A stretch of DNA of 64,000 nucleotides from Patescibacteria group bacterium (GTDB lineage Bacteria; Patescibacteriota; Patescibacteriia; Patescibacteriales; JAQVLT01), in contig JAQVLT010000005.1 in assembly GCA_028704015.1 (NCBI GenBank), positions 10,820 to 74,819 of the forward strand, given 5' to 3'. The notes beneath the pieces are model-generated. The model made no database searches. It saw only the letters and a program-made list of their open reading frames with translations, and was not told the origin of the DNA. The translations under genes were made by a program, and so were the position numbers. Positions 1,611 through 44,669 of this stretch are shown here, piece by piece; the stretch's first letter is position 1, and each line of letters starts with the position of its first letter.

Positions 1611-2128
1611 AAAAAATTAATATCATCTGGTAAATGATCAATTCCGCCGAATTCTTTAACCACAATTAGTTTGATTCGTTTTTTTAAATTTTTATTCAAG
1701 GAATAATAAGTCATCTCCTTTATTCCACCAATACTTTTACAATCATCTTCAACCAAAACATCTGGTATGGGAGACATCTTTTCTATAATATCTTTGTATT
1801 TCGCCCCCATTCCACGATGATAAATAATTCCCGCGGGAAAATTATAGCGCTCTAAAACAATTTTATCCGCTTCCAGCCCCTCCTTGCCAACCGTTTCGTC
1901 GCCTCTGGCTTTTTTATCCTCCGTCAATGCGCTCAAATAGCAAATTTGCGCGCCTTGCGACGCCCAGCGGAAAAGTTTTTCCGGCGCATTACCGATTGGA
2001 ATATAATTTTTAAAGTCGCGCACTGAATTTTCCTCTTCAATTATTTGTTCAATAATTTCCTCGCGCGTTTTTCCTGCCGCATTTTTATGCATTATTATTG
2101 TGCCGTGCAAAAAAATTAATATTTTCAT
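1607..2128 (-). CDS. hypothetical protein (possibly HAD-like) inside a nucleotide house-cleaning operon
   Basis: 173-aa ORF with 4-nt overlaps to both neighbours. No motif that I can name confidently. Confidence 0.5.
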   Translation of the reverse strand: MKILIFLHGTIIMHKNAAGKTREEIIEQIIEEENSVRDFKNYIPIGNAPEKLFRWASQGAQICYLSALTEDKKARGDETVGKEGLEADKIVLERYNFPAGIIYHRGMGAKYKDIIEKMSPIPDVLVEDDCKSIGGIKEMTYYSLNKNLKKRIKLIVVKEFGGIDHLPDDINFL

Positions 2129-2553
2129 ACTTTTATTTTCCGCAAAATTTTGAATCTCTCTGCAAACTTCTTATTTCTGGGTGATGCTTTCAAATTTTGA
2201 AATTCATCCGGTTCCACCCATTTAAAATCGTCATGCTCAAAACTTAAAACAATATTTGTCGTAATCGGCCGCGCTAAATAACAAATCGTCACCCAAAATT
2301 CTCCCACATCGTCAAATCCGGAGATAGCATCCAGCACGGATAAATTTTCAACTTCCAATCCCGTCTCTTCCCCAATCTCCCGAATAATCCCATCGCACAA
2401 ATCTTCACCAAAATTTAAATCGCCTCCCGGCAAATCCCAATGCAATGGCCGCGACGGAGCAGTCTCGGTTCTCCTGATTGTTAGCACTTGACCATCTTCA
2501 TTAAACAAAATCGCTTTCTGTGAAATATTAATTTTTTGTTCGCCATGTTCCAT
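2125..2553 (-). CDS. NUDIX hydrolase
   Basis: Nudix box GGDLNFGEDLCDGIIREIGEETGLEV (GX5EX7REUXEEXGU). Confidence 0.85.
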   Translation of the reverse strand: MEHGEQKINISQKAILFNEDGQVLTIRRTETAPSRPLHWDLPGGDLNFGEDLCDGIIREIGEETGLEVENLSVLDAISGFDDVGEFWVTICYLARPITTNIVLSFEHDDFKWVEPDEFQNLKASPRNKKFAERFKILRKIKV

Positions 2554-2820
2554 GACTTTTTTTTATATTTATTTTATCTTATCTTAAACTAAAATTCAAT
2601 CAATTCTGTAAAAAATAAATCCCTACAAAATAATTATTGAAATTTTTTGACCACGCCACAGTCTTTCGGAGAGAATTGTGGCAAAAAATTACGGTCGCCT
2701 TGAACAAACCAACTATTGCTTTTTTTCATAAAATATGCTACATTTGTTAAAATACAAAAACTAAGTTAGTAGTCAACTATTAATCAACGTTCATTAAAAA
2801 CATGAAGGGAGAAAAAAATC

Positions 2821-3525
2821 ATGAAAGACTACTATTGCCCCGAAAGTTACAAAGGACCGCAGCCGATCGCGCAACAAATTCGCAAAGTCGCAAAAATGTT
2901 TGATCTCGATCCCGAAAGAGCCATCAAATATTCGAAAAAATTGCCGCCTCTGCATTCGTTCGTTCCGAGTGAAGCGTTGAAATGCACGGGGTGGTTTGCC
3001 ATCCCGATGGTTAAAGCGCTGGCGGCAAAAGTAACCGATCGCAACCAGCAATACTGCGAGACTTTGCTGTCAATCTTGGCGACAAAGACAGACGACGGGA
3101 CTTTCAGCATCGAACGCAAAATAGAGCCGGCGCTATTTCAAATGCGAGTTAACACCGCCGAACATCTCGCCCAAATCACCAGGGCGCAAGGTGGTAGCGA
3201 CATCTTGATCGTCGCCGCCCAAATCGGGAAATATCACGTTAGCCAATACGTAGAGACGGCAAAATTGGCACCTAATGAATGCGGCCTTTGGAGTGTGGCG
3301 GGGTGCACCATCGCGCTCACCCACCCCGAAAGATTTGCCCCTGGATGTTTGGGCATAATCTGTTCGGGAGATCAAACCCGCAATGTCACGGATGAAAAAA
3401 CGGATGGCAAATTTGTGGCATCGCCAGTAATCTGCTACATGGCGGAGAAAAAAATAAGGCTCATCGCGCAGCGCGACGACTGTATTGACTTGAATCGGGG
3501 GATGGGGTCAGTTTTCATACCGTGA
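2821..3525 (+). CDS. hypothetical protein, high-GC orphan
   Basis: 234-aa ORF with SD GAAGGGAG upstream and a clean terminator downstream. GC is visibly higher than in neighbouring genes. No recognisable motif. Confidence 0.5.
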   Translation: MKDYYCPESYKGPQPIAQQIRKVAKMFDLDPERAIKYSKKLPPLHSFVPSEALKCTGWFAIPMVKALAAKVTDRNQQYCETLLSILATKTDDGTFSIERKIEPALFQMRVNTAEHLAQITRAQGGSDILIVAAQIGKYHVSQYVETAKLAPNECGLWSVAGCTIALTHPERFAPGCLGIICSGDQTRNVTDEKTDGKFVASPVICYMAEKKIRLIAQRDDCIDLNRGMGSVFIP

Positions 3526-9073: not shown

Positions 9074-10383
9074 TACTGGTGCCAAATTTTTAACACATCT
9101 CGCAAAGTGACAACCAAAACTAAAACCATCAACAAAATAAAACCAATATTATGAATCACCGCCTCTACTTCCCGCCTTACTGGTTTGCCCTTGAATTTTT
9201 CAATGATTAAAAAGAAAACTCGGCCGCCATCCAATGCCGGAAAAGGAAGAAAATTTATTACTGCTAAATTCACCGAAAGCAAAGCGGTAATTTGCAACAA
9301 ATAGACCCAGCCCATTCTCGCCGCCTCGCCGGTAATCGTAGCAATGCCAACCGGCCCTGATAGATTGGCGCTTACGCCATGACCTAAAATAATATCTTTT
9401 ATCAAATTATAAAAAGCAACAATTATCGCCCAGAGAAGAAAAACTGTTGTTTTCGTCCCCTCCCAAATCGCCAAATGCCACGGGTACTTAACAATGCCGG
9501 TAGCAGCAATCGCGATACCAACACCCATGCGGCCATCTTCTAATTTTAGTTCCGGTTTAATTTTTAATTCTTTTTCTTCGCTTCCACGCTTAATTTTATA
9601 AGTTAACTCTTTGTTTGAATTTTCGTTAACAAAATTTTGGAGGTCACTTTCTTTGGTAAAATTTTTATTATCAATTGCGAGAATTATATCGCCGACTTTG
9701 AGCCCCGATTTTTCGGCTGGAGAATCTTTAATCAATTCAGCTACTTGAATTTTTTGGTTAGTTACTACTGCCTTGTCAGTCACTCCATCCAAAGCTCGCG
9801 GCATGCCGAACATTAAACCAACGGAAATGAGAAAAACCGCCAAAAGGACATTCATAATGACGCCCGCTGACAAAATTAAAGAGCGTTGCCAAACTGGCTT
9901 ATTTATCATGCTGTCTTGGTCGTGATCGCCTTCGCCATTTTCGCCTTTTATTTTCACAAAACCGCCCATCGGTATCCAGTTGGCAGAATACACGGTGCCA
10001 TGTTTTTGTTCTTCAGCGCTGATTTCTTTATTACTCCAAAAAAATTTCCATTTTCTTTCAACAATTATAACGCCAATATTTTTAATTCTATCAAAAATTG
10101 TTTGTCTAGCTACTTTTCCTTCCGCCGTTTGCGTTTCTTCGGTTTTTATTTCCAACTCTTCGGTAGTAATAACATTTTCAACTTTTTTTTCTCGCCAAGT
10201 CTGGAAACCGCCGATGCGCGGTGGAAAGCCGAAACCGAATTCTTCCGCCCGCACGCCAAAAATCCGAGCGACAAAAAAATGTCCCAATTCATGAGCAAAA
10301 ACCAAAACAGACAAAACCAAAAAAAATATTATAATAGTTAGTAACATAACGAAAGTGAAAGTATAAAGTAAAAAGTCTCTCAA
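9073..10383 (-). CDS. rseP: RIP metalloprotease RseP (site-2 protease, M50) with PDZ domain
   Basis: HELGHFFVARIFGV zinc motif, a PDZ-like segment (SPAEKSGLKVGDIILAIDN) and the C-terminal NLAVINFLPFPALDGG motif. Confidence 0.85.
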   Translation of the reverse strand: MRDFLLYTFTFVMLLTIIIFFLVLSVLVFAHELGHFFVARIFGVRAEEFGFGFPPRIGGFQTWREKKVENVITTEELEIKTEETQTAEGKVARQTIFDRIKNIGVIIVERKWKFFWSNKEISAEEQKHGTVYSANWIPMGGFVKIKGENGEGDHDQDSMINKPVWQRSLILSAGVIMNVLLAVFLISVGLMFGMPRALDGVTDKAVVTNQKIQVAELIKDSPAEKSGLKVGDIILAIDNKNFTKESDLQNFVNENSNKELTYKIKRGSEEKELKIKPELKLEDGRMGVGIAIAATGIVKYPWHLAIWEGTKTTVFLLWAIIVAFYNLIKDIILGHGVSANLSGPVGIATITGEAARMGWVYLLQITALLSVNLAVINFLPFPALDGGRVFFLIIEKFKGKPVRREVEAVIHNIGFILLMVLVLVVTLRDVLKIWHQ

Positions 10384-30712: not shown

Positions 30713-31162
30713 TTAAATGACCTTTTTTACGCTAATAAGACCGTTCGCGTCTATCACAATTTCAAACGCAACTCTCTTTAAAGTAATCGGCGTATCTGAA
30801 AATATTGAATTAAGAAACCTATTAAATTCACTTATTTTATAACTACCGGACCAATTGGGAAGACCGAACTCTCTAGAAAACTCCACTAACTGGTTATGAA
30901 AATCAATAAAATTAATTATAGAATTTGAATATTCCCCGTTATCAACCCTTATAAACATATCTTCAATTATTTTGGGGCACCTCTCTATTTCTGAATGTAA
31001 AGCAAGATTACAGTAAAAATTTAATATGCTATATTTTTCAGGATGGCCTTGCATTTCTAAGACTTTTCTAATTCTAGACAATGCATACACAATATCCTCC
31101 TCTGAAGATGGAGCTATTCCAAATTTTTTCGATAGTTTTTCTAAAATTTGCGTTTTGCCCAT
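30713..31162 (-). CDS. hypothetical protein
   Basis: ORF 30713..31291 trimmed to the ATG at 31162 (MGKTQILEKL...), because the upstream part is the tRNA-Ser gene read as protein. Confidence 0.5.
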   Translation of the reverse strand: MGKTQILEKLSKKFGIAPSSEEDIVYALSRIRKVLEMQGHPEKYSILNFYCNLALHSEIERCPKIIEDMFIRVDNGEYSNSIINFIDFHNQLVEFSREFGLPNWSGSYKISEFNRFLNSIFSDTPITLKRVAFEIVIDANGLISVKKVI

Positions 31163-31199
31163 ATTTAGATAATCGAATTGATTTCGATAAAAATTGTCT

Positions 31200-31289
31200 T
31201 GGCGGAGAGTGAGGGATTCGAACCCTCGAGGACCTTTCGACCCAACAGACTTTCCAGGCCTGCGCCATAAACCGCTAGGCGAACTCTCC
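31200..31289 (-). tRNA. tRNA-Ser (anticodon GGA), class II with long variable arm, CCA encoded
   Basis: Hand fold of GGAGAGTTCGCCTAGCGGTTTATGGCGCAGGCCTGGAAAGTCTGTTGGGTCGAAAGGTCCTCGAGGGTTCGAATCCCTCACTCTCCGCCA. It has a 7-bp acceptor stem, anticodon loop CU-GGA-AA, an 18-nt variable arm, T-arm GAGGG/TTCGAAT/CCCTC and discriminator G. Confidence 0.85.
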
Positions 31290-31301
31290 ATTAATTCCGT
31301 T

Positions 31302-31338
31302 CCCCTCTCCTTTTAAAGGAGAGGGCTAGGGTGAGGTT
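31302..31338. repeat. purine/pyrimidine hairpin element (CCCTCTCC-TTTTAAA-GGAGAGGG plus GCTAGGGTGAGGTT tail)
   Basis: Read directly. Same family as the element inside ligA at 36225..36280. It lies between tRNA-Ser and the DUF559 cassette. Confidence 0.7.
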
Positions 31339-31340
31339 TT

Positions 31341-31819
31341 AGTTTTTACCTCCTACTTAAAAATGAGGAGGGACTAAAACACCACGAGATAAAGTTTTTA
31401 ATTGGTCACAATATTCAATAATATCCCCGACAACCAAATCTTGATTTTTGTAAACCTCACAATTTGAGTAACGCTTAAGCGCTACTCCGATACTTTTTAT
31501 ATACTCTTCTTTTTCTTTATCATTTTTTAATTCTTTATCGCTACTATGAGTCGCTCCATCAATTTCAATCGCTAATTTTACTTCCGGGCAATAAAAATCA
31601 ACTATATAACCGCCAATTCCATATTGCCGACGAAATTTATATCCAAAATTTCTATTTCGCAATTTCCGCCATAATAATTTTTCCGCGCCAATTTCTTGCT
31701 TTCTTAAAAAACGTCTGATATTTTTCTGATCTGTTTTATTAAATATTTTTCCCATATTTTTCGAAATGGGAGTTTAATTTTACCTCCTCCTGACCTCCTC
31801 CTTAAAAAGGAGGAGGGAC
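31341..31819 (-). mobile_element. putative DUF559 endonuclease cassette bounded by direct copies of a hairpin repeat
   Basis: AGTTTTTACCTCCTACTTAAAAATGAGGAGGGAC (31341..31374) and AGTTTAATTTTACCTCCTCC[TGACCTCCTCC]TTAAAAAGGAGGAGGGAC (31771..31819) flank the ORF. Each copy is itself a CCTCCT/AGGAGG hairpin. A tRNA gene is adjacent. Confidence 0.4.
31357..31755 (-). CDS. DUF559 (Vsr-like) endonuclease domain protein
   Basis: LLWRKLRNRNFGYKFRRQYGIGGYIVDFYCPEVKLAIEIDGATH is the classic DUF559 core. The last residues (VPPHF*) and the stop codon are encoded by the flanking hairpin. Confidence 0.85.
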   Translation of the reverse strand: MGKIFNKTDQKNIRRFLRKQEIGAEKLLWRKLRNRNFGYKFRRQYGIGGYIVDFYCPEVKLAIEIDGATHSSDKELKNDKEKEEYIKSIGVALKRYSNCEVYKNQDLVVGDIIEYCDQLKTLSRGVLVPPHF

Positions 31820-31839
31820 GAATGGCGCTCCTTTATTTT

Positions 31840-32574
31840 CTATTTTGCCAATTCTCTTTCAATTACACTCTTTAATCCTTCTCTTGCCACACCATCGCTG
31901 CCGGTAAAATCTTCATAAGGATAAGCGCCAGGAAGAATTTCGTCGTTAACAAAAATCGTCGGCGTACCATTAACGCCGAAGTTTTTTCCTTCAAGCATTT
32001 GGCTGTAAATTTTATCTTTATACTTTTCTGTTTCCACACATTGCTGAAATTTCGCCAAGTCCAAACCAATATCTTTGGCATTTTGATTATATTGCTCGCT
32101 ATTTAAAATGGCTGATTTGTTATCAGCAAACAATTTGTCATACATCTCCCAAAATTTCTCCTGCTCACTTGCACATTCCGAAGCGATTGCCGCCCCCATG
32201 GCATTTGAGTGGGAATATAAAAAATAATGGCGGAAGGCGATCTTAATTTTATCGGCGTATTCTTTTTTTACTTTTTCCAATGTGCCATAAAAATCCGCGC
32301 AAAACGGACAATCAAAATCGCTATAAACAATAATTTCTACCGGCGCGCTCGCTTCTCCCCAAACATGATCAGTGTCGTCAATCGGCCTTAACTTTTGCAA
32401 CCCCGCGCTCTGCGCTCCGAAGACCGCTTCTTGGTTGGAATTTTTTAAAGTAGAAATTTCATTAATCGCTTTTTCGTCCGGCAATTTTCCTTTGCCAAAA
32501 TAAAAAACAGCCGCAACGGTGATTAAGGCTAAAATAAATATCACGATAATAATTTTTAAAAAATTTTTGTTCAT
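31840..32574 (-). CDS. DsbA-family thiol:disulfide oxidoreductase, membrane-anchored
   Basis: N-terminal TM helix (MNKNFLKIIIVIFILALITVAAVFYF), CxxC active site DFDCPFCADF and the thioredoxin-fold tail GTPTIFVN. Start trimmed to 32574 to remove the overlap with gatA. Confidence 0.8.
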   Translation of the reverse strand: MNKNFLKIIIVIFILALITVAAVFYFGKGKLPDEKAINEISTLKNSNQEAVFGAQSAGLQKLRPIDDTDHVWGEASAPVEIIVYSDFDCPFCADFYGTLEKVKKEYADKIKIAFRHYFLYSHSNAMGAAIASECASEQEKFWEMYDKLFADNKSAILNSEQYNQNAKDIGLDLAKFQQCVETEKYKDKIYSQMLEGKNFGVNGTPTIFVNDEILPGAYPYEDFTGSDGVAREGLKSVIERELAK

Positions 32575-32578
32575 AAAT

Positions 32579-34045
32579 TTATATTGATGGTTTTTGGTTA
32601 TGCCATTCTGTCGCTTCTTGATAATTATGTCCGATCCTGAGAAGCATTCCTTCGTTAAATCTCTTGCCAATCAACTGAAAACCGACTGGCAGGCCTTCGG
32701 AAAATCCGCAAGGCACTGATATTGCCGGCAAGCCGGCCAGCGAAGGACCAGTGACAAAAATATCTTCCAAATACATCTGCAACGGATCACTATTTTTTTC
32801 GCCGATTTTAAAAGCAACTGTCGGTTGAGTCGGCGTAATTATCGCGTCAACTTTTTCTAATTCAAAATCCAATTCCTCTTTTATTTTCGTTCTGACTTTC
32901 TGCGCTTTAAGATAATAGGCGTCATAATATCCGGCGCTTAATACATAAGTGCCAAGCATTATTCTTCTCTTCGCTTCCGACCCAAAACCTTCGCCGCGAC
33001 TTTTGGTATATACTTCCGTTATACTCTTAACTTGATCTGATGATAGGCCATAGCGAATGCCGTCAAAGCGCGCTAAATTTGAACTGACTTCTGACGGCGT
33101 AATAATATAATAAACCGGAATACCGTATTTGGCATAAGGCAATTTCACCGGCACAATTTCCGCGCCCAGTTCTTTTAATTTATCAACCGCTTTTAATAAT
33201 ACTTCTTTAAAATTTTTATCAGTCACCTGATCAAAATATTCTAGAACCATGCCAAGTTTCAATCCCTTAATATTCTTTCTGAATTCTTCGCTATATTCCG
33301 GCACTTCTACTTCCGGCGTGGTGGCATCATGTTTGTCATGGCCAGCAATAATTTTTAAAACAATACTTGCATCCTCTACGGTCTTGGTGATCGGCCCGGG
33401 TACATCAGTTGATGAAGTCATAGCCAAAAGACCAAAGCGCGAAGAACGGCCATACGTTGGCTTTAATCCGGTAACTCCACAAAAAGAAGAAGGACAGCGA
33501 ATTGATCCACCCGTGTCAGTCCCTAATGCAAACAAACAAATATTTGCCGCTACTGCCGCCGCTGAACCGCCGGAAGAACCGCCAGGCACTCGTTCCAAAT
33601 CCCATGGGTTATGTGTCGAACCGAAAGCGCTATTTTCCGTGGACGCGCCATGCGCGAATTCATCCAGATTGGTTTTACCCAAAAGCACCGCGCCGGCATC
33701 ACGCAATTTTTTTATCACCGTGGCGTCAAATGGCGCAATATAATTTTCAAGAATTTTGGAAGCAGCCGTTGTCCGCACGCCGCGTGTCAAAATATTATCT
33801 TTGGCTAAATATGGAATTCCCAGTAAGGGCAAACTAATCGCTTCCGCGCCTAATTTTTTTCGTCTTTTATCCGCCTCTTTCGCTTCCGCCAATGCTTCAT
33901 CTGCGCACACGGTTAAGCAGGCCTTGATTTTATCATCAACTTCTTTAATGCGCGCCAAGCAAGCCTTGGTTAAATCAACCGAAGTTATCTCGCCATTCGC
34001 CAATTTCTCTTGCGCTTGTTTGATTGTTAATCGATTGAGATTCAT
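32579..34045 (-). CDS. gatA: Asp/Glu-tRNA(Asn/Gln) amidotransferase subunit A
   Basis: Amidase signature GGSSGGSAAAVAA and GTDTGGSIRCPSSFCG. Start set at MNLNRLTIKQ (34045). Confidence 0.95.
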   Translation of the reverse strand: MNLNRLTIKQAQEKLANGEITSVDLTKACLARIKEVDDKIKACLTVCADEALAEAKEADKRRKKLGAEAISLPLLGIPYLAKDNILTRGVRTTAASKILENYIAPFDATVIKKLRDAGAVLLGKTNLDEFAHGASTENSAFGSTHNPWDLERVPGGSSGGSAAAVAANICLFALGTDTGGSIRCPSSFCGVTGLKPTYGRSSRFGLLAMTSSTDVPGPITKTVEDASIVLKIIAGHDKHDATTPEVEVPEYSEEFRKNIKGLKLGMVLEYFDQVTDKNFKEVLLKAVDKLKELGAEIVPVKLPYAKYGIPVYYIITPSEVSSNLARFDGIRYGLSSDQVKSITEVYTKSRGEGFGSEAKRRIMLGTYVLSAGYYDAYYLKAQKVRTKIKEELDFELEKVDAIITPTQPTVAFKIGEKNSDPLQMYLEDIFVTGPSLAGLPAISVPCGFSEGLPVGFQLIGKRFNEGMLLRIGHNYQEATEWHNQKPSI

Positions 34046-34435: not shown

Positions 34436-36586
34436 CTAACCCCTAATTATACTTAGGAACGCTTTCTCGTCAACCACCTTCACTCCCAACTTTACCGCCT
34501 TGTCATACTTGCTTCCCGGATCAGCGCCGGCGACAACGTAGTCAGTATTTTGGCTAACTGATGAGGAAACATCGCCTCCTAATTCTCTTATCTTAGCTTT
34601 TGCCTCATCTCTTGTCAAACTCTCCAAAGCGCCGGTTAGCACGAAAGTTTTGCCAGTAAAATTTTGACTTTTAACTTTTAATTTTTGACTTTCAATAACC
34701 ACTCCAGCCTTTTCTAATTTTTCCAAGAGCTCAATATTATGCTTATCGCGAAACCAATCATAAATACTTTGCGCTACGATTGGACCAACATCTTCCAATT
34801 TTTCCAAATCTTCTAAACTTAAACTTTGATAATATTTTGAAACTTCTGAAATGGTAAGCACTGATTTATTTGTAAATTTATGCGCTATTTGTGAATTTGT
34901 AATCTGCGCTGCCAAAAGTAAAGCACTCTCTTCCCCGACATGTCTGATCCCCAAGGCGTATAAAAATCTAGATAGAACAACCACCTTGCGTTCGGCAATC
35001 GCTTTGACCAAATTCTCAGCAGATTTTTCGGCAAACCTTTCTAGCGGTTCTAGATCTCCGACTGTTAAATTGTAAAAATCGCTCGCGTCGCGCACCAATC
35101 CTTCTTTCATCAATTGCTCAATAATTTTCGGACCTAAGCCTTCAATATCCATTGCACTTTTACTCGCCCAGTGCATCAACCGACGCAAATTAACCGCATA
35201 ACAATTTTTGTTCTCACAACGATAAGCCACCTCGCCCTTCACTCTTTCAATTTCACCATCGCACATGGGACATTTTTTTGGCACGTGGATTTCCTTTTCT
35301 TTGCCGGTACGCAATTTGGGTAAATTTTTTATAATTTTGGGAATCACATCACCGGCGCGCTCAATAATCACCGTGTCGCCAATTTTTACACCCAATCTTT
35401 TTATTTCATCCATATTATGAAGCGTAGCGCGTGAAATTGTTACTCCGGCAACATGCACTGGCTCTAACATAGCGGTGGGCGTTAAAGTTCCAGTTCGTCC
35501 GACCTGCCAGACAACATCGTTTAAGATTGTCGTCGCTTGAACAGCAGCAAATTTATAAGCCATCATGTAGCGCGGTCCTTTGCCAACCACGCCGAGAACC
35601 GGCCAAAGCGCCAAATTATTCACCTTAACGACTACGCCGTCTATTTCAAAAGGTAATTTTTCCCGCTTAGCTTCGCAATGTTTATAAAACGAAAAAACTT
35701 CATCCAAATCACGGCAAAATTTCACGTCTTTCAAGGTCTTAAAACCGAGAAGATGCGCCAATTGAATTTCCTGCTCATGAGTTTCCATTCCTAAATCGGT
35801 TGCCAAGGCATAAACATAAAAATCCAATTTTCTTTCGGCTGACAATTTTGGATCAAGCTGGCGGATTGAACCGGCAGCGCCATTTCGGGTATTAGCGAGT
35901 AGCGGCCGGCCTTCTTTTTTGTATTTTTTGTTAAGCTCTTCAAAAACTTTTTTGGTCATAATGGCTTCACCGCGATATTCAATCACGCCGTTTTCTATGC
36001 TGGCTAAAACTTTTTTGATTACTGCCGCGGCCAAACCGATTTTTTTAAGTTCGCTCTCGGTTGGCAGGCGCAAAGCTAGCGGTATGCTTTCAATGGTTTT
36101 TAAATTATTTGTCACATCTTCGCCCACTCGCCCATCACCGCGCGTTGAACCTTGTTGGAATGCTCCTTTTTCATATTTTAAATTCATCGCCAAGCCATCC
36201 AACTTTAATTCGCAGAAGTAGCCAACCTCACCCCCCGCTCCCCCTCTCCTAATTAGGAGAGGGGGCTGGGAGGAGAGGTTCTTAATAACTCTTTCTTCCC
36301 AATCACGCATATCTTCTTCGGAAAAAGCGTCAAACAAAGAATGCATTACAGAAGAGTGTTCAACTTTTTTGAACTTATCTAAAGGTTCGCCGCCGATTCT
36401 CTGGGTCGGCGAGTCGGGCGTGATAAATTCCGGATATTCCATCTCCAGTTTAAACAATTCATTTTTCAAGCTATCCAAAGCCGCATCAGAAATTTCCGAT
36501 TTGTCCAAAACATGATACAAATACCTGTAACGGTTAATTTCTTCACGTAATTTTTCAATTCTTTTTTTAATCTCTATTTTATTCAT
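34436..36586 (-). CDS. ligA: NAD-dependent DNA ligase LigA (with in-frame hairpin-element insertion)
   Basis: Adenylation motif CELKLDG, OB fold, Zn finger (CPMCDGEIERVKGEVAYRCENKNC), HhH repeats and a C-terminal BRCT (GKTFVLTG). Confidence 0.95.
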   Translation of the reverse strand: MNKIEIKKRIEKLREEINRYRYLYHVLDKSEISDAALDSLKNELFKLEMEYPEFITPDSPTQRIGGEPLDKFKKVEHSSVMHSLFDAFSEEDMRDWEERVIKNLSSQPPLLIRRGGAGGEVGYFCELKLDGLAMNLKYEKGAFQQGSTRGDGRVGEDVTNNLKTIESIPLALRLPTESELKKIGLAAAVIKKVLASIENGVIEYRGEAIMTKKVFEELNKKYKKEGRPLLANTRNGAAGSIRQLDPKLSAERKLDFYVYALATDLGMETHEQEIQLAHLLGFKTLKDVKFCRDLDEVFSFYKHCEAKREKLPFEIDGVVVKVNNLALWPVLGVVGKGPRYMMAYKFAAVQATTILNDVVWQVGRTGTLTPTAMLEPVHVAGVTISRATLHNMDEIKRLGVKIGDTVIIERAGDVIPKIIKNLPKLRTGKEKEIHVPKKCPMCDGEIERVKGEVAYRCENKNCYAVNLRRLMHWASKSAMDIEGLGPKIIEQLMKEGLVRDASDFYNLTVGDLEPLERFAEKSAENLVKAIAERKVVVLSRFLYALGIRHVGEESALLLAAQITNSQIAHKFTNKSVLTISEVSKYYQSLSLEDLEKLEDVGPIVAQSIYDWFRDKHNIELLEKLEKAGVVIESQKLKVKSQNFTGKTFVLTGALESLTRDEAKAKIRELGGDVSSSVSQNTDYVVAGADPGSKYDKAVKLGVKVVDEKAFLSIIRG
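36225..36280. repeat. purine/pyrimidine hairpin element inside the ligA coding sequence
   Basis: AACCTCACCCCCCGCT-CCCCCTCTCC-TAATTA-GGAGAGGGGG-CTGGGAGGAGAGGTT. It translates in frame as NLSSQPPLLIRRGGAGGEVG just before the KxDG motif. Confidence 0.75.
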
Positions 36587-44649: not shown

Positions 44650-44669
44650 CCTGCCTGCCGGCAGGCAGG
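44650..44669. repeat. GC palindrome family, copy 2 (CCTGCCTGCCGGCAGGCAGG, perfect)
   Basis: Perfect 20-nt palindrome in AT-rich intergenic DNA. Confidence 0.75.

Follow-up and report, generated by a model that had tools for sequence, protein, structure and literature searches.

The subject of this study is a small nuclease gene of the DUF559 family, enclosed by hairpin-forming repeats, in a metagenome-assembled genome (MAG) of a Patescibacteria group bacterium. The window, by which we mean the whole stretch analysed, comprises 64,000 nucleotides of contig JAQVLT010000005.1 (positions 10,820 to 74,819, forward strand) and has a G+C content of 37%. Around the cassette formed by the gene and its repeats the order is ligA, gatC, gatA, a dsbA-like gene, the DUF559 gene, tRNA-Ser(GGA), an open reading frame (ORF) of no recognised family, an HD-domain gene and a cation-efflux gene, and all genes surrounding the cassette are carried by the minus strand. 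The features on which the argument turns, followed by their neighbours, are these:

31357..31755, minus strand: DUF559 (Vsr-like PD-(D/E)XK) nuclease gene, 132 aa, Pfam PF04480
31782..31819, minus strand: module A, a complete triplex-type module just upstream of the DUF559 gene, with a perfect hairpin
31347..31374, no strand assigned: module A', a decayed direct copy without third segment, overlapping the last five codons and the stop
31302..31339, plus strand: module B, a second complete triplex-type module, which separates the cassette from tRNA-Ser
31840-32670, minus strand: DsbA-like thioredoxin gene, the neighbour upstream of the DUF559 gene
31200-31289, minus strand: tRNA-Ser(GGA) (ARAGORN; Rfam tRNA, 53.8 bits), probably outside the unit
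36224..36280, no strand assigned: solo copy of the repeat class, a four-segment palindrome in frame in ligA (fold -20.6 kcal/mol, z -4.7)

Results

A DUF559 nuclease that is not Vsr

The ORF at 31357..31755 matched the Pfam DUF559 profile (PF04480) at E=6e-27 and 94.1 bits, against a cutoff of 20.6, over profile positions 3-108 of 109, and the NCBIfam PRK09767 DUF559 model at E=9e-17, under that model's equivalog cutoff; as a sequence assignment, its place in DUF559 is secure. It is the sole DUF559 gene in the window, a weak tblastn match at 9670-9858 having been discarded as a spurious second copy because it runs antisense to an RseP-like gene. The Pfam families listed for the protein at E<=0.01 were DUF559, MTES_1575, DUF2726 and PvuRts1I-like_N. 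Vsr proper, the Dcm-partnered T:G mismatch endonuclease, belongs to the same fold superfamily, and homologues of the window protein carry the JGI annotation 'very-short-patch-repair endonuclease', but identity with Vsr fails, since the Vsr family is absent from the Pfam scan at E<=0.01 and no cytosine-5 methyltransferase gene adjoins the DUF559 gene, whose neighbours are dsbA and tRNA-Ser.

Residues invariant across 42 homologues include D53, E64, D66, G67, H70, D79 and R95. The profile of these homologues matched PDB 3HRL, an 'endonuclease-like protein' of N. gonorrhoeae, at E=7e-28 over 102 residues, and matched weakly both the homing endonuclease I-Bth0305I (3R3P, E=0.0065) and PvuRts1I. 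The conserved core stops near residue 120, and the C-terminal tail and stop codon come from module A'. Two further attributions were rejected: membership of a defence system, for which PADLOC gave just weak domain-level matches to Hhe, mREase_II and DpdF, and carriage by phages, given merely 13 relatives among 2.9 million viral contigs.

Hairpin modules with a mirror third segment

Two copies of one repeat, at 31348-31377 and 31793-31822, bracket the gene in direct orientation with the same loop polarity and are identical at 27 of 30 positions. Their motif has no other site in the window (0.01 expected from shuffles), and with an 11-nt indel the direct repeat reaches into AGTTT..TTT leaders. 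An earlier note on this DNA had described both the bracketing and the shared leaders, and in these respects it was right. Folded as single-stranded DNA, the upstream hairpin (31794-31816) has a perfect 10-bp stem (-10.2 kcal/mol, z -3.1), whereas two non-compensating substitutions have left the downstream one (31349-31371) with a decayed stem of 6 bp (-5.2 kcal/mol, z -1.9). In the decayed copy the edge of the loop holds the TAA stop of the gene (the reverse complement of 31357-31359) and the stem encodes the terminal residues VPPHF, as the note had also read them, and a third hairpin, which it had placed between the cassette and tRNA-Ser, lies at 31303-31325 (CCCTCTCC/GGAGAGGG; -10.5 kcal/mol, z -3.5). 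A relaxed scan of the window for hairpins with one pyrimidine and one purine arm, in which shuffles yield about 2.6 weak matches, left only four genuine cases in 64 kb, three of them within 110 nt of the DUF559 gene and one in ligA.

Each read on the strand of its purine-rich extension, which for module A is the gene strand, module A is GTC CCTCCTCC TTTTTAA GGAGGAGG TCA GGAGGAGGT, and module B is CCCTCTCC TTTTAAA GGAGAGGG CTA GGGTGAGGT(T); both are laid out as a pyrimidine arm, an A/T loop, a purine arm, 3 nt and a mirror copy of the purine arm. The half-site duplication previously noticed at the gene-upstream copy, ACCTCCTCC TGA at 31782-31793, is real; it is the mirror-repeat third segment of the motif. 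The third segments of modules A and B each offer allowed purine-motif triads (G.G-C, A.A-T, T.A-T) at 10 of 10 positions. The same rule holds for 228 hairpins of related loci, in which the additional segment mirrors the arm beside it, often with T in place of A: where the arms are asymmetric, the mirror fit prevailed over the direct fit by 75 to 1 among 3' extensions and by 68 to 2 among 5' extensions, counts that rule out a direct repeat or an alternative Watson-Crick partner. This mirror design is that of an intramolecular purine-motif triplex, into which the modules can, by prediction, fold.

Judged by their pattern, whose criteria both satisfy, modules A and B belong to the known BoxC/PIT/TM_ECO class of intrastrand triplex motifs; module A' lacks the third segment. 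The class is reportedly treated in Bergler 1992, in Hoyne and Maher 2000 and 2002, and in Holder et al. 2015 (PMC4666352). Its E. coli member TM_ECO reads 5'-CCCTCNCCC N3-6 GGGNGAGGG N3 GGGNGAGGG, forms a triplex in vitro that has gone undetected in vivo, and lies at loci that are rearranged more than control sites; triplex motifs halt DNA polymerase in vitro, no function has been identified for them, and mobility functions were 'never found' nearby (PMC4666352). The window modules share with this class the C-rich arm, the short loop, the G-rich arm, a 3-nt spacer (TTA, CTA, TCA), the mirror G-rich segment with T allowed opposite A, and a dispersed occurrence in which copies are frequently paired as palindromes. 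They differ in their arms (CCTCCTCC and CCCTCTCC, 8-10 nt, instead of CCCTCNCCC) and in their host, a Patescibacterium, and whereas the published work found no gene associated with the repeats, the modules described here are tied to a nuclease gene family. The earlier suggestion that the hairpins are the nuclease's own private sites does not hold, as they belong to a known class of which solo copies exist without a DUF559 gene.

The modules coincide precisely with the two ends of the ORF, and one reading makes them signals for expression of the cassette (terminator, insulator, mRNA stability or translation) and not targets of its nuclease. In sequence the purine third segment is similar to a Shine-Dalgarno element (GGAGGT), and in many cases it is found shortly before the start; in 25 of the 82 loci compared below the module supplies the stop codon. 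We nevertheless hold a regulatory role to be highly unlikely. No T-run follows the hairpins on either strand and PIT elements, according to Hoyne and Maher (2002) as reported in PMC4666352, have neither promoter nor terminator activity in E. coli, so the hairpins are not read as intrinsic terminators; GGAGGAGGT, at 26 nt from the ATG, is too distant to serve as ribosome-binding site in the window. Rfam at a permissive threshold returned tRNA only and no family for the modules. The mirror-repeat rule is predicted by neither terminator nor ribosome-binding-site function, and modules also occur in frame within genes.

Association of gene and repeat across phyla

We compared 82 DUF559 loci, 80 from a scan with the DUF559 alignment (one genome per species) and 2 from exact protein look-up, drawn from Patescibacteria, Nitrospirota, Bacteroidota, Ignavibacteria, Gammaproteobacteria, Cyanobacteria and others. 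A hairpin was counted if it was perfect, GC-rich, at least 8 bp long and no more than 150 nt from the start or stop of a gene. Such hairpins were found at 63 of 82 starts (77%) and 58 of 82 stops (71%) of DUF559 genes, compared with 35 of 482 starts and 43 of 498 ends (7-9%) of other genes in the same loci, giving odds ratios of 42 (start, p 8e-41) and 26 (end, p 6e-33). At least one side carries a hairpin in 77 of the 82 loci and both sides do in 44; the earlier note had allowed that DUF559 genes elsewhere might lack the repeats, or that the hairpins might be as frequent beside unrelated genes, and the counts point the other way on each score. A flanking hairpin with a mirror third segment is present at 60 of the 82 loci, and in many homologues translated modules form N- or C-terminal tails, such as PPNPPLIKGR and PHPNPLLGKERG.

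The resemblance of the repeats follows that of the proteins. In the five protein pairs that resemble each other most across phyla (64-72% identity) the module similarity score is 30-46, against a mean of 14. Between cassettes of different phyla, nucleotide similarity sets in within the module, 40-140 nt before the start, and breaks off close to the stop. Taken at the level of these alignments, the window locus is one case of a gene-repeat partnership that extends across many phyla. Among those parts of the literature mentioning DUF559 that came to our attention, we found no report of an association with triplex repeats or of cassettes bracketed in this way across phyla; both the repeats and the protein family had been described before, and it is their specific cross-phylum association that appears to be new.

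Comparison of the two flanks showed direct repeats to be clearly the better fit at 32 of 78 testable loci and inverted repeats at 15 of 78, with the same repeat score attained by 7% (direct) and 12% (inverted) of mismatched-locus controls. Direct repeats measure 40-190 nt, their period is that of gene plus module, and some of them take in non-module DNA or the first codons of the gene; at this frequency direct copies, as in the window, constitute one common form of the family's architecture. Such a period would also arise if a site-specific recombinase encoded elsewhere, with the folded hairpin as its substrate, inserted the gene together with one palindromic module in the manner of an integron, leaving direct copies behind; the four-segment palindrome formally resembles attC, and a XerC-like integrase gene adjoins one homologous cassette (L003). 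We regard this explanation as most improbable. There is no integrase within about 5 kb of the window cassette, the gene occurs singly and cassette arrays are absent, the repeat length varies widely and 15 loci are inverted, features on which classification as an integron gene cassette fails; nor was an integron core-site noticed in the modules that were read, although no dedicated search was run.

Homologues in other contexts and relatives without the cassette

Two homologues place the same modules in unrelated neighbourhoods. The protein of L003 (74% identity) is encoded between a xerC-like gene and dnaG, and that of L004 (64% identity) between a PPIase gene and an HD gene, yet both genes are flanked by modules A and B, with identical arms and third segments and agreement at 34-37 of 38 positions, the differences falling in loops and spacers; module A by itself matches its counterparts at 37 of 38, with loop-only differences. 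As synonymous sites of the three cassette genes differ by 68-77% and are thus near saturation, the modules must be strongly constrained or homogenised. The HD-domain genes near the window and L004 cassettes are not a residue of synteny, since their proteins, at just 31% identity, are not orthologues.

Some relatives lack the cassette beside dsbA. In L086 (DsbA 57% identical) gatA-dsbA is followed after about 60 nt by tRNA-Ser and cation efflux, and the DUF559 gene and both modules are absent; the locus is thus not identical, cassette included, in all relatives, which the earlier note had named as a refuting outcome. In the nearest relative (DsbA 73% identical) maf follows dsbA, and in L088 and L089 a GIY-YIG gene occupies the dsbA-proximal slot. 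L088 keeps the order ligA-gatC-gatA-dsbA with PDDEXK_3 and GIY-YIG genes in intergenic slots, neither of them flanked by GC-rich pyrimidine/purine modules. The PDDEXK_3 gene (L088:529-1053, also in L089), between ligA and gatC, has AT-rich repeats (TTCAAATGCT.CAAAT) on its flanks, and downstream there are inverted copies of them. The GIY-YIG gene (L088:3789-4531, also in L089) follows an apparent 5' part of tRNA-Ser, and a shared segment, CCCCGCGTAGCGGGATGCCGCTTTGCGGCAGAGA, recurs in the next tRNA-like gene.

The tRNA gene beside the window cassette, to which the earlier note had attached importance, looks incidental, since no more than 2-3 of 60 other loci have a tRNA as neighbour of their DUF559 gene; the same count rules out tRNA targeting by the cassette. 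Directly downstream of tRNA-Ser, the ORF at 30713-31198 (minus strand) has no Pfam match, and its start is uncertain because the longest reading runs into the tRNA gene. Two Logan contigs (L001 and L002), independent short-read assemblies with the cassette, both stop near window position 31200, the 3' end of tRNA-Ser, which may reflect strain variation or repeats past the tRNA.

Across syntenic homologue pairs the ratio of nonsynonymous to synonymous substitution (dN/dS) is 0.05-0.23, and the cassette is kept in place within four sets of related genomes (L053/L065/L067, L061/L071, L082/L083 and L011/L017); together these indicate a long-lived cassette under selection for function. Strong purifying selection and long-term retention at one locus would suit a domesticated, structure-specific nuclease that resolves hairpins or triplexes for its host, for instance at stalled forks, does not spread itself, and came by descent to lie among its substrates. 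Kinship with the repair nuclease Vsr (PMC1189080) and the block that triplex motifs impose on polymerase in vitro are consistent with such a role. It is, in our estimate, distinctly unlikely, because close homologues stand in unrelated contexts, presence of the gene among relatives is patchy, and about 38% of E. coli genomes lack the DUF559 gene at its locus; moreover, host maintenance leaves the two-sided bracketing by modules, often as long direct repeats, unexplained.

ycjD of Escherichia coli

An independent check is provided by ycjD, the DUF559 gene of E. coli K-12, which terminates within a degenerate module (…CCCTCTCCC TGA…) and whose 3' end is partly duplicated downstream, between this module and TM_ECO #9 (L091:5030-5840, sapF-ycjD-fabI). 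Holder's TM_ECO #9 is a canonical motif 167 nt from ycjD, and BoxC was originally described at envM (= fabI), the locus that adjoins ycjD. The gene has been listed, without comment, as flanking a TM_ECO element (PMC4666352). Across 5426 complete genomes the sapF-fabI slot holds ycjD in 3346 and the eef efflux operon in the rest; in phylogroups A, B1 and C the operon has given way to ycjD, whereas the others have eef, which was lost at least 2 times (PMC12817139). O157 fails as a simple empty site, since the eef operon sits in its slot, and the difference is a replacement and not a clean insertion or deletion.

Reported TM_ECO copy numbers are 11 in O157, 12-13 in 042 and 6 in IAI39, with 13-30 in one strain set and 1-2 in another (PMC4666352). 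The trend in counts is compatible with a partnership between ycjD and TM_ECO, and it is confounded by phylogeny. We take the strains with 13-30 copies to be those of phylogroups A, B1 and C, and the strains with 1-2 copies to be those of B2.

Another proposal is that the modules are simply fragile, recombination-prone hot spots at which small transferred genes land and persist, DUF559 being functionally unrelated to them. In its favour, TM_ECO loci show elevated rearrangement, the break of homology between strains with ycjD and strains with eef falls about 35 nt from TM_ECO #9, stretches outside the module or part of the gene itself are included in some flanking direct repeats (L015, L021, L084), and in L088 and L089 the dsbA-proximal slot is taken by a GIY-YIG gene instead. 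We nonetheless think this proposal unlikely. Landing sites of that kind would not explain why hairpins mark the ends of other genes so much more rarely than those of DUF559 genes, nor why module similarity tracks DUF559 protein similarity, across phyla too; the GIY-YIG and PDDEXK_3 genes of L088 sit in their slots without flanking modules, and three homologous cassettes share identical module arms despite near-saturated synonymous sites.

Solo modules and other dispersed palindromes

Modules also stand alone. The ligA gene (34436..36586, minus strand) contains the solo element at 36224-36280, which, compared with the solved LigA structure 1B04, lengthens the protein by about 14 residues (SSQPPLLIRRGGAG) immediately ahead of the KxDG adenylation motif; LigA has a second insertion of about 24 residues at 178-201. 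A B-type module lies within a called CCA-adding enzyme ORF (L004:2116-2150 in 1742-3214), and of the 142 GC hairpins that do not flank the gene in the 82 loci, 60 fall inside crude ORFs, which suggests that such elements are frequently inserted in frame into genes. In Rickettsia, palindromic elements (RPE) likewise occur as solo modules in frame in essential genes, as in ligA and the CCA-adding enzyme gene here; they are a different sequence family in a different host, and the likeness concerns the solo copies and not the cassette. A metagenome scan with GGAGGAGGTCAGGAGGAGGT returned 45 loci, largely unrelated tandem repeats, so unspecific is the pattern, and shows only that solo modules exist.

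Other repeats are present too. The palindrome CCTGCCTGCCGGCAGGCAGG at window positions 44650-44669 recurs in loci of other phyla, in exact form at L010 11655-11674 and as close variants inside the flanking repeat of L017 and nested in a module of L124, and may be another dispersed palindrome family. IS200/RAYT-like ORFs, called from their translations, occur at L036:1216-1822, where REP-like hairpins of the ATTCCCGCGAAGGCGGGAAT kind lie on both sides, and at L020:1046-1639, where the ORF contains a different GC hairpin. The ATTCCCGC hairpin family is present also in L012, L022, L025 and L049, with close variants in L048 and L079.

Discussion

Any account of this locus has to accommodate the module-gene-module architecture, its statistical association with DUF559 genes, the conservation of the modules, the varied contexts of the homologues and a relative that has neither gene nor modules. 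We favour, tentatively and at somewhat less than even confidence, the reading that the DUF559 protein is a selfish or semi-domesticated nuclease that acts on the modules and moves with them, by analogy with RAYT proteins and REP sequences. The nuclease would recognise the modules, as folded hairpin, triplex or duplex DNA, and nick or cut there; break-induced repair or homologous recombination among module copies would then carry gene and modules to other module sites, amounting to homing into a dispersed repeat. The outcome would be the module-gene-module layout, with copies direct or inverted, and solo modules, including those in frame within genes, would be non-autonomous relatives or leftovers. 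The earlier note had offered a selfish unit or a repeat-targeting nuclease as its own explanation; the comparative evidence fits that idea, of which mobility is a proposed part.

Several observations count against the selfish reading and account for our caution. Cleavage of the modules by the DUF559 protein and the recombination route are steps that we infer. The relatives with empty sites are distant (DsbA 57-73% identical to that of the window) and no close-strain empty allele was present among the relatives compared; recent mobility is not seen, since the cassette keeps its place in all four sets of related genomes, and dN/dS values of 0.05-0.23 fit a host-beneficial or domesticated gene as well as a slow selfish one. 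Direct repeats that take in non-module DNA are expected from generic repeat-induced duplication. The cross-phylum comparison relies on taxonomic labels of MAGs, which could be wrong. Solo modules outnumber DUF559 genes (as in ligA and L124), none of the three genuine A-type modules of the metagenome scan adjoins a DUF559 gene, and just 5 of the 13 viral-contig homologues have hairpins nearby. In E. coli, O157 strains lack ycjD at the locus yet have 11 TM_ECO copies, and ycjD is fixed within phylogroups.

Known systems offer partial likenesses to the cassette. Like the REPtrons, in which a RAYT gene accompanies REP/BIME repeats, it is a single gene bracketed by a hairpin repeat that otherwise occurs as many dispersed solo copies. 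It is not a REPtron: its enzyme is a Vsr-like PD-(D/E)XK nuclease, of putative activity, and not an HUH/Y1 transposase, a third segment of triplex type belongs to its repeat, and flanking copies are more often direct than inverted. With homing endonuclease genes of the EDxHD group such as that for I-Bth0305I (PMC3239194) it shares small stand-alone size, patchy distribution, differing contexts in close relatives and a remote sequence kinship. Unlike them, the cassette lies outside any intron or intein, its presumed target is a dispersed repeat and not a unique conserved site in a gene, whole repeats and not split half-sites stand on either side, and it has been held in place over long divergence.

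The BoxC/PIT/TM_ECO repeats have been known since 1992 and mark unstable sites in genomes, with neither a function nor a mobilising enzyme identified for them, and DUF559 is, to our knowledge, a very large nuclease family without a known role. Since the pairing recurs at DUF559 loci of many phyla and at ycjD of E. coli, the nuclease may be the missing partner of the repeats. It is possible, if doubtful, that DUF559 proteins serve as trans-acting partners of triplex repeats throughout the bacteria, reading the hairpin with its third strand, cutting there, and so creating, spreading or pruning the repeats along with themselves. The link, specific and statistically strong, extends from Patescibacteria to E. 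coli and offers both DUF559 and the triplex repeats a testable function, for which YcjD with TM_ECO in E. coli K-12 would be a ready experimental system. If a triplex or hairpin in its folded state is indeed what the nuclease reads, the protein would represent a novel type of structure-specific DNA enzyme, and the spread of triplex repeats, into coding sequences included, would be explained. The cassette would then be an analogue of the REPtron, built from a Vsr-like nuclease and a triplex-forming repeat, whose in-frame solo copies reshape essential proteins as a by-product.

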